Shown here: in pieces, positions 183 to 9,328 of the stretch
Layout: the number at the start of each line of letters is the position of its first letter
How positions within the stretch are numbered: position 1 is the first letter of the stretch
Source of the DNA: a virus
UHGV virus genome: UHGV-0117372
DNA length: 10,031 bases
Direction: 5' to 3' (one strand)
The notes under the pieces: model-generated
What the model saw: the letters and a program-made list of their open reading frames with translations, nothing else
Database searches by the model: none
Told to the model about the DNA's origin: nothing
Program-made: the position numbers and the translations under genes

Positions 183-404
183 ATGCAATCCATTAACTTC
201 CGTACCGCGCGCGGCAACCTTTCTGAAGTGCTCAACAATGTTGAGGCCGGGGAAGAGGTTGAAATCACCCGCAGAGGCCGTGAGCCAGCAGTAATTGTCA
301 GCAAGGCTACTTTCGAAGCCTACAAAAAAGCGGCGCTGGATGCTGAATTTGCATCCCTGTTTGACACCCTGGACTCCACCAACAAGGAACTGGTTAACCG
401 ATAA
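183..404 (+). CDS. phd: Phd antitoxin (prevent-host-death), 73 aa
   Basis: The 73-aa ORF ([26 protein letters not shown]...) matches P1 Phd as I remember it, in length and sequence. A GAGG RBS lies 5 nt upstream and the stop overlaps the doc start (TAATG). Confidence 0.95.
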
Positions 405-784
405 TGAGGCATATATCACCGGAAGAACTTATTGCGCTTCATGATGCGAATATAAACCGCTACGGCGGCCTGCCGGGAATGTCTGATCCGGGTAGGGCAG
501 AGGCCATTATCGGGAGAGTTCAGGCCAGAGTTGCCTACGAAGAGATCACCGACCTTTTCGAAGTCTCCGCCACCTACCTGGTGGCTACAGCGAGAGGGCA
601 TATATTCAATGATGCCAATAAGCGTACCGCGCTAAACAGTGCGCTGCTATTTCTACGCCGTAACGGGGTGCAGGTATTTGATTCACCTGAACTGGCAGAC
701 CTTACCGTAGGGACTGCGACTGGCGAGATATCTGTATCTTCTGTCGCCGACACGTTACGTAGATTGTATGGTTCTGCGGAGTAG
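404..784 (+). CDS. doc: Doc toxin (death-on-curing), Fic-fold kinase, 126 aa
   Basis: The 126-aa ORF carries the Fic-type motif HIFNDANKR (HxFx[D/N][A/G]NKR). Its length and sequence are consistent with P1 Doc, and it is translationally coupled to phd. Confidence 0.95.
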
Positions 785-968: not shown

Positions 969-995
969 AGCCCAATCAGTGATGAAAGGTGTGAT

Positions 996-2039
996 GTGAA
1001 AGCCATTATTACTCCCTTTGTACAAAAAGAGCTTGGCGTCGCCACATTCAAAGTGGATCAGGAAGTCAGAAAGCTGGTGGAGGCTGGCCGTAAATTTATT
1101 ATGGAGCCGGTACCGCGTGAGTTAATCGAGCACATGGACGACGGCCTCGTTGTTTCCGAGCAAACTATGGCAACAAATGAGGCGTTGCAGCCGTTTTTTA
1201 ACAGCGATGAACTGTTTCGCCGTATTGGTGGAATTGACTCGCTGATGGCGTGGTTGCGCAGGAAAGAGGGGCAATGCCAGGCCGCAGATCGTAGTTGGTG
1301 TGACAACCATATTGTCCACGCTGAACGAGACAATAGCGCGGTGTTGTTGTGCTGGCATCACGATAACCATTACCGGATGCGTGGTTTTAATGAGCTGAAA
1401 GAAACGCTGCATAATAATCGCGTTAACTGGATACTGGATGTCGCCCGTCAGGAAATGGGGCTTTCAGATGACCATGATTTAAGTATTCAGGAACTGTGCT
1501 GGTGGGCTTTCATGCGCAACATGATGCACCTGATGCCGGAAGAAGTCTGCCGCATATCAATAAATAAGATGAAGGCTACTCCGCAGGATAGCGGACCTCT
1601 GAAAGAGGCGGATATTCGTCCGTATGACGATCGCGCTACAGCATATGTTCAGATGATGGAAGAACGCGCTGCGCCGATGCGTGCAAAAGTATGCCCTGTG
1701 GATGTTGACTCCGACCCTGGCATGGCGCATTTCAAAATACCAAAACTGCAATCGCTAAAATTACCTGAGTACATGGACTTTGTTGCTTCCCGTCCATGCT
1801 GTGGGTGTGGAGCTGCGGGAGCTGGCGCTCACATTACGCCTTATATAGTTCGTCATAGTCGATTATGCGCGCATGACATTTATGCTATTCCTCTGTGCCA
1901 GTCATGCCAGCGTGATATTGAGCGTGACCGCGATAATTGGGAGAAAACACACGGCAGGCTGGCGATGCATCAACGATTGTTCTTTGATTACGCGCTTGGA
2001 GTCGGCGTTATCACAAGTCATTCGTCGAGCGTTAGATAA
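996..2039 (+). CDS. Post-doc protein, 347 aa, Cys/His-rich, unknown function; probable P1 PdcB equivalent
   Basis: Long ORF from GTG 996 with an AAAGG RBS-like sequence upstream. Two Cys/His clusters ([15 protein letters not shown]...CWHHDNHY and [27 protein letters not shown]...CQSCQ) suggest metal binding. Same strand and operon context as phd-doc. Confidence 0.7.
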
Positions 2040-2040
2040 A

Positions 2041-2082
2041 ATTGCTCTAATGTGTTGCTATTTCTTTAATCGAGGGTATTAT
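2041..2082 (+). promoter_or_regulatory. C1-operator-like site overlapping a sigma-70 promoter upstream of lpa
   Basis: ATTGCTCTAATGTGTTG at 2041-2057 matches the P1 C1 operator consensus ATTGCTCTAATAAATTT (recalled from memory) at 13 of 17 positions, with the first 11 perfect. It overlaps a -35 TTGCTA (2055-2060) and a -10 TATTAT (2077-2082) separated by 16 bp. Confidence 0.5.
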
Positions 2083-2127
2083 ATTCCACGTTGATTAGTT
2101 GACATGGGCTAATCAGTAGGTGACAGG

Positions 2128-2580
2128 ATGTTACTTAACTGGCAGGGACGCCACTTCATGGAAATAAATCACTCACGAATAACATCGTACGAGATTGCGG
2201 ATTACATGATCCGCACTAAATCTCTTCTATCAGCGAAAGAACTCGCAGCAATTCTTGAAAAGGAATACCCGCATCTGGATGTCGATAAGCGCGACGTTTA
2301 TCTGCGCTTAAAGGCTATCGCTGTGTCTAAGTATTCGTCTGTTTTGATTGATGACAGTACACGCCCACGTAGATTTCAGATCCACTCTCTGAATCCTGAA
2401 TTCTTTCGCCGCAGCCGCGCGCCGCGCCGGTTTGATGAAAAACTCCAGAACGAACTCTATATGACGCAGGACGAAAAGGAACGCCGGGAGCACCAGCCTT
2501 GGGTAATGGCGCGTCAATTTTTCAATAAGGTGGTCCGTCAGCACCGTCATTACGGTAATGCCACATCCGCACGTATCTGA
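2128..2580 (+). CDS. lpa: Late promoter activator Lpa (P1 gp10-like), about 150 aa
   Basis: A 150-aa ORF sits between the pdc genes and pacA, as lpa does in P1, behind an operator-overlapped promoter. An alternative start at ATG 2158 (MEINHSR) cannot be excluded. Identification rests on synteny and size. Confidence 0.75.
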   Translation: MLLNWQGRHFMEINHSRITSYEIADYMIRTKSLLSAKELAAILEKEYPHLDVDKRDVYLRLKAIAVSKYSSVLIDDSTRPRRFQIHSLNPEFFRRSRAPRRFDEKLQNELYMTQDEKERREHQPWVMARQFFNKVVRQHRHYGNATSARI

Positions 2581-2665
2581 TTGATTGCTTGCCCGTTCCG
2601 GGCCTTTTGACATGTGACTTTCGTTACCCTCGCGTCAAAAAGAGTTTTTACGAAAGGAAGCATAA

Positions 2666-3859
2666 GTGACCTGGGACGATCACAAGAAGAATTTTGCTCG
2701 CCTGGCGCGAGATGGTGGTTACACCATCGCACAGTATGCCGCCGAGTTTAATCTTAACCCTAATACCGCACGTCGTTATCTCCGTGCCTTCAAAGAAGAC
2801 ACCAGGACAGCGGACAGCCGCAAGCCAAATAAGCCAGTCAGGAAGCCACTAAAAAGCATGATCATTGATCACTCTAATGATCAACATGCAGGTGATCACA
2901 TTGCGGCTGAAACAGCGGAAAAACAAAGAGTTAATGCCGTTGTCAGTGCCGCAGTCGAGAATGCGAAGCGCCAAAATAAGCGCATAAATGATCGTTCAGA
3001 TGATCATGACGTGATCACCCGCGCCCACCGGACCTTACGTGATCGCCTGGAACGCGACACCCTGGATGATGATGGTGAACGCTTTGAATTCGAAGCTGGC
3101 GATTACCTGATAGATAACGTTGAAGCGCGGAAGGCCGCGCGCGCTATGTTGCGTCGGTCCGGGGCCGATGTTCTGGAAACCACTCTTCTGGAAAAGTCTC
3201 TTTCTCATCTCCTTATGCTGGAGAACGCCAGGGATACGTGTATTCGCCTGGTGCAGGAAATGCGCGATCAGCAAAAAGACGATGATGAAGGTACTCCGCC
3301 TGAATACCGTATCGCGAGCATGCTAAACAGCTGTTCCGCGCAGATAAGCAGTCTGATCAACACCATTTACAGCATCCGGAATAACTATCGAAAAGAAAGC
3401 CGGGAGGCGGAAAAGCACGCTTTGTCTATGGGGCAAGCTGGCATTGTTAAGCTGGCATATGAACGAAAGCGTGAAAATAACTGGTCAGTGCTGGAAGCAG
3501 CTGAATTCATCGAGGCGCATGGTGGGAAAGTTCCGCCCCTGATGCTGGAGCAAATCAAAGCCGATCTGCGTGCTCCTAAGACCAATACCGATGATGAGGA
3601 AAGGCAAACAGCCGTCGGTGGCCCTTCTCTTGACGATCTGGACAAAGTTGCGCGAGAACGGGCCGCCAACCGCCGCGCCGATGCCGCATTGTGGATTGAG
3701 CAGCGTAGGGAAGAAATCGCCGATATCGTTGATACAGGCGGTTATGGAGATGTTGATACTGAAGGTGTATCAAACGACCCATGGCTGGAACAAGACCTGG
3801 ACGAAGACGAGGAGGAAGACGAAGAAGTTACCCGCAAGCTATACGGGGATGATGATTAA
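2666..3859 (+). CDS. pacA: Terminase small (pac-recognition) subunit PacA, 397 aa
   Basis: GTG start with an AGGAAG RBS. The N-terminal region is HTH-like, the C-terminal tail is acidic (DEDEEEDEE), and the pac hexamer clusters lie inside the 5' part of the gene as in P1. The stop overlaps the pacB start (TAATG). Confidence 0.9.
2859..3045. other. pac packaging site: two clusters of Dam-methylatable TGATCA/G hexamers
   Basis: Left cluster has four TGATCA at 2859-2864, 2866-2871, 2878-2883 and 2893-2898. Right cluster has TGATCG 2989-2994, TGATCA 3001-3006, TGATCA 3012-3017 and an extra TGATCG 3040-3045. The spacer holds an IHF-like AAACAAAGAGTTA at 2921-2933. This matches the published architecture of P1 pac (4 + 3 hexamers within about 160 bp). 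Confidence 0.85.
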
Positions 3860-5395: not shown

Positions 5396-5517
5396 GACCT
5401 CTTGCGCCTTGAGGCATTTTCGGTTTATGCTTATCAGGCACCTCATTAAAACGGGTGCCGGGATTGGCCTCCCGCTTAAGTCTAAGGCGATACAGACGCC
5501 GCTCGCGTCTTTTTTTT
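5396..5517 (+). ncRNA. Candidate structured small RNA or leader (c4-like antisense RNA analogue?) ending in an intrinsic terminator
   Basis: No convincing ORF with an RBS. Stem-loops at GGCACC 5437-5442 / GGTGCC 5454-5459 and CGGGA 5459-5463 / TCCCG 5470-5474, then a terminator hairpin. The loop TTGGCCT (5464-5470) is complementary to AGGCCAA (5600-5606) in the icd leader. Boundaries are approximate and the RNA is not demonstrated. Confidence 0.3.
5494..5517 (+). terminator. Rho-independent terminator or attenuator
   Basis: Stem AGACGC (5494-5499) pairs with GCGTCT (5505-5510) around a 5-nt loop and is followed by a run of T to 5517. Confidence 0.5.
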
Positions 5518-5682
5518 GTATCGGCGTACACGCACACCTCTACAATGGTGGGCTGTATGGGGCTACCTTCGGGTAGGCTGGTTACCTTGGACGCCAGTAA
5601 GGCCAACTCCGTACAGTCCACCGCCAGCAAGATTGGTCTCTTCTGCGGTGGTTACATACCAACGTCTAAGGAGGCTGCCAAT

Positions 5683-5904
5683 ATGGCTACTATCCCTACC
5701 CCAACTCATCCTGAATTTATCTGGCGCTTTTACTCCTGCCAAAAACGTCACTATCACTTCGTTATTGCACCAACAGAAGATGAGGCCCGCTCTCAGCTTC
5801 CTGACGCCCCATGTATTTTCTCTGCCCGTTTTTCCACTGATTCACGCAATTCTCTCAGTTACTGGTGCCTCCCTGTTAACGCTTCTGTTCAGGAGGGGCT
5901 ATGA
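5683..5904 (+). CDS. icd: Icd-like host cell division inhibitor, 73 aa
   Basis: ATG 5683 has a strong AAGGAGG RBS 8 nt upstream. The 73-aa product (MATIPTPTHPEFIWRFYSC...EDEARSQL...) has the FIW...EARxQL pattern of Icd-like proteins. Its stop overlaps the ant start (ATGA), as icd and ant1 do in P1 immI. The 149-aa ORF in the track is this frame extended upstream across the terminator. Confidence 0.7.
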   Translation: MATIPTPTHPEFIWRFYSCQKRHYHFVIAPTEDEARSQLPDAPCIFSARFSTDSRNSLSYWCLPVNASVQEGL

Positions 5905-7019
5905 GAACGTCATTAGTCACCCGTGAAGAGATGATCGAGGCAATTGAACAGCACACTGCCTGTATCAGCACCAGGGATATTCCCAGTGTTATAGCCAACT
6001 ACTTCATGATCACTAAACAACTTTACCGGAGAAAGGACAAGAACGCGGTTCACCGTATCCTGCTGTCTGATATTCGCGAATACCTGCTCGAACAGGGTCA
6101 TCTGAATTACGCAACCGTCGCAGCCGAAGCACGCAAGGAGGCACACAGAATGAAAGCAACTAACGTTAAATCAGAAAAAATTCATGCACCTTCAGTTCAG
6201 GAATCGGAGCTGGTGGTTGTTCAGAATCAGTCTGATGAAATTCCCGTTCTGGAATGGCAGGGAGTGCGTGTAGTGACAACCGAGACTCTTGCTAGAGGGT
6301 ATGGGACAGAAACAATCCGTATTCGCCAAAATCATCATGAGAACAAAGTACGCTTTGTTGAAGGGAAGCACTTTTTCAAAGTTGAAGGAGAATCATTGCG
6401 CGAGTTGAAGCACAGAGTAGCTTTAAACTACTCTGTAAAAATTGCTCGCAATGTTCGCTCACTCACCCTCTGGACAGAACGCGGCGCAGCCCGCCACGCT
6501 AAAATGCTCGAAACCGATCAGGCATGGGCATTCTTTGAAAAACTGGAAGACAGCTACTTCCGACAAAAAGAACAGCAACCGATCGCAATCCCCCAGACGC
6601 TTCCTGAAGCCCTACGCCTGGCTGCCGAACTGGCTGAACAAAAGCAACTTCTGGAACAGAAAGCCCACCAGCTAAATCAGCAGCTGGTGGCCGCCGCTCC
6701 TAAAGTCGATTTTGCCGACCGGGTATCAGTAGCTAAAGGGATCCTGATTGGGAATTTTGCAAAGGTTGTTGGACTTAAGCAAAACGCGCTGTTTGTCTGG
6801 TTACGGGAGAACGGCATCCTGATAGCGTCCGGTGGACGTAAAAATGTGCCGTTCCAGCAGTACATCAACGCGGGGTATTTCACGGTGAAAGAAGTGGTGC
6901 TGGATGATGAAGATGGCTACCAGATACGGTTGACGCCTCAATTAACGGGTAAAGGCCAGCAGTGGTTGACGCGTAAACTGCTCGATGCTGGCTTGTTAAA
7001 ACCGGTGGCAGCTGAATAA
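5901..7019 (+). CDS. ant: Antirepressor Ant (ORF6N plus KilA-C/ANT domains), 372 aa, with an in-frame internal start at 6151 giving a 289-aa form (Ant1/Ant2-like)
   Basis: The central region VLEWQGVRVVTTETLARGYG...FVEGKHFF fits the ORF6N antirepressor N-domain, and the C-terminal region (KVDFADRVSVAKGILIGNFAKVVG...) fits the KilA-C/ANT domain. AGGAGG precedes ATG 5901, and AAGGAGG sits 8 nt before the in-frame ATG 6151, mirroring the P1 ant1/ant2 nested pair. Confidence 0.8.
   Translation: MRTSLVTREEMIEAIEQHTACISTRDIPSVIANYFMITKQLYRRKDKNAVHRILLSDIREYLLEQGHLNYATVAAEARKEAHRMKATNVKSEKIHAPSVQESELVVVQNQSDEIPVLEWQGVRVVTTETLARGYGTETIRIRQNHHENKVRFVEGKHFFKVEGESLRELKHRVALNYSVKIARNVRSLTLWTERGAARHAKMLETDQAWAFFEKLEDSYFRQKEQQPIAIPQTLPEALRLAAELAEQKQLLEQKAHQLNQQLVAAAPKVDFADRVSVAKGILIGNFAKVVGLKQNALFVWLRENGILIASGGRKNVPFQQYINAGYFTVKEVVLDDEDGYQIRLTPQLTGKGQQWLTRKLLDAGLLKPVAAE

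Positions 7020-8341: not shown

Positions 8342-9328
<987 letters not shown>

Follow-up and report, generated by a model that had tools for sequence, protein, structure and literature searches.

The open reading frame at positions 996-2039 of a 10,031-nt stretch of viral DNA (UHGV virus genome UHGV-0117372; the whole stretch is called the window below) encodes a protein with two clusters rich in Cys and His and lies just behind the phd-doc addiction genes. A preliminary description of the sequence left this protein unrecognised, compared the clusters to zinc-binding or HNH-like nuclease motifs and, through the placement of the gene, implied a link to the addiction module. The locus raises three questions: what the gene is, whether its product can be expected to cut DNA, and to which of its neighbours it belongs.

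Identity of the gene

The open reading frame is, with near certainty, pdcB of a P1-like phage-plasmid, an already catalogued gene. It is 96.6% identical to P1 pdcB over 1044 of 1044 nt (about 97% at the amino acid level, with only a few substitutions), and the pdcB genes of P1, P7, JL22, RCS47 and SJ46 match it over the full length at 96.4-97.5% nucleotide identity. The boundaries are exactly those annotated in the P1 RefSeq record (NC_005856); P1 PdcB (YP_006573, gene pdcB, P1_gp107) and Upf95.7 of P7 represent the same gene, with identical length, start and stop. Its place between pdcA and Olpa/Plpa-lpa in a P1-like replicon likewise reproduces the P1 order, phd-doc-pdcA, pdcB, Olpa-Plpa-lpa-pacAB, and the first 9310 positions of the window are 99.7% identical to a P1-like E. 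coli plasmid. The GTG start is common to the orthologues of P1 and of three further loci (L009, L012 and L013), and orthologues down to 37% identity retain it together with the N-terminus MKA(V/I)ITPF. The plasmid of the window departs from P1 past pacB, where it carries a c4-ant module and a truncated IS5-like element. The features discussed here are listed in Table 1.

Table 1. Coordinates of pdcB, its protein regions and associated elements, in the window and in comparison loci
Feature	Sequence	Position	Strand	Remarks
phd	Window	183-404		Upstream of pdcB
doc	Window	404-784		Upstream of pdcB
pdcA	Window	768/789-968		Upstream of pdcB; alternative starts
Shine-Dalgarno-like GAAAGG	Window	984-989	+	6 nt 5' of the pdcB GTG; plausible, read from sequence
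pdcB CDS	Window	996-2039	+	347 aa; GTG start; TAA stop at 2037-2039
N-terminal segment, aa 1-57	Window	996-1166	+	pLDDT 50-68; MKAxITPF..ELG motif conserved
Helical and zinc-knuckle module, aa 58-160	Window	1167-1475	+	Cluster 1 at nt 1275-1370; putative ligands C94, C102, C119, H122
Middle region, aa 161-255	Window	1476-1760	+	ELCWW helix (E166, C168, W169, W170), then low-confidence linker
C-terminal His-Me/HNH-type zinc finger, aa 256-340	Window	1761-2015	+	Cluster 2 at nt 1797-1922
C1 operator Olpa	Window	2041-2057	+	P1 annotation; starts 2 nt past the pdcB stop; one base differs from P1
Promoter Plpa (element 2041-2082)	Window	-35 at 2055-2060, -10 at 2077-2082	+	P1 annotation; promoter scan gives the same hexamers
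isrK-like RNA	Window	5438-5515		60.8 bits
C4 antisense RNA	Window	5541-5628		75.9 bits
ORF6N/KilAC antirepressor	Window	5901-7019		372 aa; follows C4 RNA
IS5-like (ISKpn26 family) transposase ORF	Window	8411-9328		Only 305 aa
ref of P1	L002	2077-2637		Intact HH motifs
phd-doc-pdcA and pdcB stub	L014 (NZ_LC520288.1)	1688-2842		IncF plasmid; stub unannotated, codons 1-114
D6-type locus (pdcB homologue)	L004	376-1940		Pre-late-regulator placement
YdfU-type locus	L003	4712-7897		Pre-late-regulator placement
YdfU-type locus	L005	2633-5749		Pre-late-regulator placement
YdfU-type locus	L007	5645-7878		Pre-late-regulator placement

The seemingly unrecognised protein is therefore P1 PdcB, which falls in DUF968 and His-Me finger group 7 and carries the RefSeq product name 'HNH endonuclease'. 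The P1 RefSeq/GenBank record itself describes it as 'unknown protein function; 25 pct identical to putative E. coli protein P76162', the latter being YdfU. The remark that its function is unassigned holds good, as the literature searched contains no paper giving PdcB or YdfU a function.

Family membership

PdcB represents the P1 lineage within YdfU/DUF968, a family of temperate-phage proteins. Residues 161-337 match Pfam DUF968 (PF06147) over model positions 1-171 of 171 with 170.5 bits (E=4.5e-50; gathering threshold 27.8 bits), and DUF968 is matched by 40 of 40 aligned homologues as well. The full-length protein matches PHROG 96, labelled 'HNH endonuclease' (E=1.2e-128), and a match to PHROG 11007 spans residues 2-134. 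DUF968 and DUF1364, the latter represented by YbcO (PDB 3G27), together form group 7 of the His-Me finger superfamily (PMC5714182). The colinear layout of the DUF968/YdfU proteins, an N-terminal CQ...LCWHHDN module, an ELCWW helix and a C-terminal zinc finger, is found in PdcB. YdfU of the E. coli Qin prophage and lambdoid DUF968 proteins (~330-350 aa) are colinear with it throughout and share the first two of these motifs and the four zinc ligands of the C-terminal finger; they have DDPHH and H-x3-H catalytic motifs, both of which PdcB lacks. An HMM search of 1.84 billion cluster representatives returned 828 proteins at E<=1e-3 and 55 at E<=1e-30, the top matches being mostly colinear proteins of about 320-370 aa, and tblastn found a PdcB match in 1283 plasmid records.

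Other searches were less productive. PdcB gave no match in NCBIfam, none by phmmer against PDB sequences and none to the PADLOC defence-system HMMs at E<=0.01; the sole PDB match of the family profile was YbcO (E=1), and no Rfam RNA family matched inside 996-2039. A NinB/Orf-like (RAGNYA) N-terminal domain was considered for PdcB and rejected, as no NinB match was detected. Gram-positive phage 'DUF968' proteins have been described as fusions of a NinB/Orf-like N-terminal part to HNH (Curtis et al., 2014; PMC4118853). Since PdcB lacks a detectable domain of this kind at its N-terminus, the 'Orf-HNH fusion' description is inapplicable to it, and it stands outside that group (Pfam HNHc_6). Three long proteins (P0087, P0133 and P0135; 582-807 aa) have YdfU-type sequence in their first 160-250 residues followed by tail-fibre-like sequence; instead of true fusions, these may be assembly chimeras or gene calls that read through a prophage junction.

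Protein architecture and the two Cys/His clusters

The full-length model of PdcB is of moderate confidence (pLDDT 73, pTM 0.50), does not make the zinc sites explicit and falls to pLDDT 41-67 across residues 190-255. The strings quoted in the preliminary description are present at residues 94-125 (cluster 1) and 268-305 (cluster 2, CCGCG...HITPYIVRH...CAHD...CQSCQ). PdcB contains 12 Cys and 16 His, and each cluster holds 8 Cys/His per 35 residues. Because 15% of shuffled PdcB sequences give one equally dense 35-residue window (p=0.15), Cys/His composition by itself is unremarkable, and the reality of both clusters rests on conservation in the aligned sequences and not on composition. In the 40-sequence alignment C94, Q95, C119, N141, E166, C168, W169, W170, C268, H293, C301 and G320 are invariant. 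Zinc-ligand behaviour is also seen at C102 and H122, each of which is Cys or His, and at C271 and C304. This ligand-type conservation supports the zinc-binding look ascribed to both clusters. Conservation of the Cys/His residues is nonetheless uneven: C94, C119, C268, H293 and C301 never change, but H105, H108, H279 and H287 vary.

The N-terminal cluster is, as modelled, a conserved Cys/His zinc module. When residues 58-160 are modelled alone the pLDDT rises to 90.4; C94 and C102 precede a hairpin (residues 106-119), C119 lies at its end and H122 is in the next helix. This beta-beta-alpha layout is like that of the C-terminal finger, but its fold match to HNH is weak.

In the C-terminal finger the predicted zinc ligands are C268, C271, C301 and C304. 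The first two precede strand 1 (281-284), C301 ends strand 2 (297-300) and C304 opens the helix (302-310), which is the beta-beta-alpha-metal arrangement of the His-Me/HNH fold, with a C-x2-C ... C-x2-C/H site flanking the hairpin. The best structural match to PdcB is P1 Ref (3PLW; score 8.1), followed by the HNH domains of IscB and Cap5 (5.5 each), EcoKMcrA and YbcO (3G27; 5.4 each), ScoMcrA (5.2) and Gme HNH (4.3). These matches to Ref, HNH domains and YbcO mark cluster 2 as a real HNH/His-Me zinc finger. Profile comparison with hhalign agrees, pairing the finger at 94% probability (E=1.5e-7) with the phiNM1 Gp16 nuclease domain and at 82% with P1 Ref, and Gp16 itself exceeds the DUF968 threshold over its residues 136-200. 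The C-terminal finger of PdcB is homologous to the nuclease domains of Gp16, Ref and YbcO.

These relatives differ from PdcB in instructive ways. Gp16, a RecA-interacting HNH nickase of a Staphylococcus phage (Pfam HNHc_6, PF16784; PMC12817073), has a homologous C-x2-C ... C-x2-H finger and is the sole relative found in the group with mutational data on both zinc and catalytic residues. Ref, a RecA-dependent HNH endonuclease (RecA_dep_nuc, PF16786), is a 186-aa protein with a disordered basic N-terminus and a single finger; unlike PdcB it has intact HH and HH motifs, belongs to another Pfam family and has its own C1 operator. YbcO (DLP12/phage 82; PF07102/DUF1364) is a single domain of 96 aa that retains the catalytic pattern AH...CSACHDEID. 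P1 carries two members of the His-Me group, Ref with its intact motifs and PdcB with a degenerate centre.

Degeneration of the catalytic centre

Mutagenesis of Gp16 provides the reference for reading the centre of PdcB. In Gp16, C148, C181 and H184 were tested as zinc ligands, C145-x2-C148 being the first CXXC pair, and H157, H185 and H189 were tested as the nuclease centre (PMC12817073). In the alignments all four zinc positions of Gp16 fall on Cys in PdcB (C145 on C268, C148 on C271, C181 on C301 and H184 on C304), and none of the three catalytic histidines falls on His (H157 on I280, H185 on Q305 and H189 on E309). However, H157A, H185A and H189A relieved the toxicity of Gp16 in part only (PMC12817073), so these histidines are no all-or-none proxy for function.

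Residues were counted in 80 near-full-length cluster representatives, 66 from outside the P1 clade and 14 from within it (>=60% identity). The strand-1 pair is HH in 57 of the 66 non-P1 proteins; in the P1 clade it reads RI, QI, HI, NI or PY, with the second His in none of 14. This second residue is the general-base position (I280 in PdcB, the second His of DDPHH), occupied in the clade by Ile (12/14) or Tyr (2/14). Position 305 is His in 63 of 66 non-P1 proteins and Gln in 14 of 14 P1-clade proteins, and position 309, again His in 63 of 66, is A, E, S, V or R throughout the clade (14/14). By contrast, C268, C271, C301, C304, H293 and D294 are mostly kept among the 66 and kept in all 14. PdcB accordingly has neither the general-base His at the end of strand 1 nor the helix metal-ligand His/Asn of the H-x3-H motif after the second zinc pair, both of which His-Me catalysis calls for. 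The HH pair is also absent from the D6-type homologue (P0020, 37% identity) and from an intermediate protein (P0056).

Two details temper this picture. His279, present in the window and in P1, lies one residue before the general-base position and varies within the P1 clade; a one-residue shift of the alignment would restore one of the three histidines in the P1/window sub-clade. Furthermore, H293 and D294 are invariant, and a metal ion might conceivably be held by Q305 together with E309 or D307. As far as sequence comparison goes, PdcB is nevertheless probably dead as a nuclease, and the 'HNH endonuclease' label of the databases is probably wrong for the P1 lineage. The HNH-like nuclease motif of the preliminary description survives in part: an HNH fold is indeed found at cluster 2, but the catalytic histidines are replaced in 14/14 P1-clade representatives and H279 and H287 are unconserved. 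That intuition was right for the fold and probably wrong for catalysis.

Selection and dispensability

pdcB is under strong purifying selection. Pairwise dN/dS within the P1 clade is 0.09-0.15 for the whole gene and 0.075-0.097 for the C-terminal finger where dS is not saturated. Among P1-like phage-plasmids, about 20 genes have been reported to show extreme conservation, and pdcB is one of them (PMC9603915). Since the zinc ligands are kept and dN/dS is low while the catalytic histidines are replaced, the simplest reading is a selected, nuclease-dead scaffold. In the laboratory the gene is dispensable: CRISPRi knock-down of pdcB gave an efficiency of plating of 0.68 and was scored as nonessential (PMC10695390), and phage carrying pdcB::kan remains viable, with stable lysogens (PMC10067587; PMC10999674).

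Genomic context

In the window, phd-doc and pdcA lie directly upstream of pdcB, as had been described, and lpa, pacA and pacB lie downstream. No terminator-like site is called between pdcA and pdcB. Olpa and Plpa mark the 3' end of the pdcB transcription unit, and as lpa has its own C1-controlled promoter, pdcB must be read from upstream promoters; it is probably transcribed from promoters such as Pphd, separately from lpa. The start of pdcA is more likely the ATG at 789, which lies past the doc stop and gives 59 aa, than the one at 768 of the P1 annotation, which gives 66 aa and overlaps doc. Residues 8-66 of the longer form align to the full 59 positions of PHROG 3345, and PdcA is also 59 aa long where it was called independently, in L013 and in IncF plasmids. 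PdcA has no significant HTH family match in Pfam or NCBIfam, so that the 'small HTH protein' of the preliminary description is a putative label.

Comparison across loci separates pdcB from its upstream neighbours. All P1-clade members (64-79% PdcB identity) keep pdcB-lpa-pacA-pacB, followed by c1 where the locus reaches that far. phd-doc-pdcA stands upstream only in P1 proper and in L013; elsewhere among the P1-clade loci unrelated genes take this place, and pdcB-lpa-pacA-pacB-c1 is kept without phd-doc in L009, L011 and L012. The D6-type homologue in L004 is directly upstream of an Lpa homologue, without doc. Conversely, an IncF plasmid (L014) has phd-doc-pdcA followed by a stub of pdcB with 80.7% amino acid identity that adjoins a type I R-M gene and IS5, and many other plasmid records match roughly the first 114 pdcB codons only. 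The phd-doc-pdcA cassette thus seems to travel without an intact pdcB. Conserved co-occurrence with phd-doc is lacking on both counts, and the implied link to the addiction module does not hold up across lineages: divergent P1-like plasmids keep pdcB-lpa-pacAB without phd-doc, and the IncF plasmid has a stub only. 'Post-doc' is a positional name, the accident of one lineage, and the conserved neighbour of pdcB is lpa-pacAB downstream.

The wider family shows a related arrangement. Canonical YdfU-type genes occur in lambdoid nin regions beside RusA or KilA-N/Rha genes, either directly upstream of a Q-type antiterminator gene (PF03589) or two genes from it. Genes of the YdfU/PdcB family precede the late regulator in two unrelated systems, Q in lambdoid prophages and Lpa in P1/D6-like elements (Table 1). 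The conserved relation in lambdoid and P1-like phages is that of a 'pre-late-regulator' gene.

Possible roles of PdcB

The reading that we consider rather probable is that PdcB, as the P1-lineage YdfU/DUF968 protein, is a selected, nuclease-dead and zinc-stabilised accessory protein that binds DNA or RecA-DNA. Its lambdoid-prophage relatives, with the intact centre DDPHH ... HD ... C-x2-[CH]-H-x3-H, are likely to nick or cleave DNA as products of the nin/recombination region. Within the P1 clade, Ile/Tyr stands in place of the general-base His, Gln in place of the metal-binding His after the second zinc pair and a non-His residue in place of the His at +4, and the zinc ligands and fold are held under strong purifying selection. 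PdcB would bind two zinc ions and act without cutting DNA. Its closest characterised relatives are Ref and Gp16, and on their model it may bind DNA or a RecA-DNA complex. The gene is dispensable for lytic growth and lysogeny in the laboratory, and its accessory role would not be apparent under such growth. A more specific version, whose chance we put somewhat short of even, makes PdcB a catalytically dead descendant of a lambdoid YdfU-type HNH nuclease, kept in P1-type and D6-type phage-plasmids always directly upstream of lpa, as a binding-only 'pseudo-nuclease' whose targets would be, for example, branched or RecA-coated DNA or a host or rival-phage factor. If this is true, PdcB could influence recombination and the SOS response, or how the element competes with lambdoid phages bearing the active form.

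PdcB could instead be an active HNH endonuclease or nickase that uses a non-canonical set of residues, for example H293/D294 with Q305/E309, and cuts host or phage DNA, perhaps with RecA as Ref and Gp16 do. The PHROG 96 match and the identical RefSeq label speak for this, as do the fold and sequence homology to the Ref and Gp16 nuclease domains and the invariance of H293-D294 across the family, and strong purifying selection on the finger fits an enzyme too. The database labels, however, are carried over from the family; the general-base position is Ile or Tyr in every P1-clade representative and the metal-ligand positions are Gln and non-His in every one, while about 60 of the 66 relatives have all three histidines. 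To our knowledge, every characterised His-Me nuclease has a general-base His (colicin E9, I-PpoI, Serratia nuclease and Cas9 among them). We regard an active nuclease as unlikely. The conserved gene block gives some attraction to a role in packaging or the late switch, in which PdcB, as a (dead) HNH protein, would team up with the PacA/PacB terminase or with the late activator Lpa, comparable to the terminase-assisting HNH proteins of cos phages, gp74 of HK97 being one: pdcB-lpa-pacA-pacB is kept throughout P1-like plasmids, the D6-type homologue also directly precedes lpa, and behind the lambdoid relatives the late regulator gene Q follows directly or is two genes away. Yet plating and lysogeny are normal when pdcB is knocked down or carries an insertion, whereas lpa, pacA and pacB are essential; the C1-controlled Olpa/Plpa separates pdcB from lpa and implies different regulation; and the lambdoid phages have their terminase genes far away from this gene. 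Terminase-associated HNH proteins fall in Pfam HNH (PF01844), a separate member of which stands beside the terminase in L003. Such a helper role appears improbable.

Least probable is that PdcB, with PdcA, is an accessory or regulator of phd-doc that modulates toxin action or plasmid stability. The immediate succession of phd-doc-pdcA and pdcB with no terminator-like site between the last two, the overlap of pdcA with the end of doc in the P1 annotation, and a preprint on P1vir transcriptomes that places pdcB among maintenance/toxin-antitoxin genes would fit it. Against this, P1-like plasmids at 64-70% PdcB identity keep pdcB-lpa-pacAB while unrelated genes replace phd-doc-pdcA, the D6-type homologue precedes lpa without doc, the IncF cassette ends in a pdcB broken off at codon 114 (with the same partial match in many plasmids), and the wider family resides in lambdoid nin regions and not beside toxin-antitoxin genes. 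PdcB is most unlikely to be part of the phd-doc addiction module.

The consequences are those of a useful annotation-level refinement, modest in scope, and no major concept is changed. pdcB is already known both as a gene and as a family member. What is new here is the lineage-specific loss of the catalytic centre, described in no paper found. P1-like phage-plasmids are widespread carriers of resistance genes, and the finding of lost catalytic histidines on a selected zinc scaffold would correct the 'HNH endonuclease' label that is spreading as a RefSeq product name. It steers experiments on the PdcB lineage towards binding partners and away from cleavage, and YdfU-type and PdcB-type proteins would offer a natural active/inactive pair for the study of this nin-region family.

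Other elements of the window

The segment 5438-7019 forms an immI-like c4-ant module between pacB and c1, composed of the two RNAs and the antirepressor gene of Table 1. In the divergent P1-like loci L009, L011 and L012, c1 comes after pacB, at a distance of no more than about 30 nt. Homology to P1-like plasmids ends at about 9310, and 9250-10031 matches an alpha/beta-hydrolase region of large E. coli plasmids. The end of the window looks like an IS-mediated junction between P1-like DNA and other plasmid DNA.
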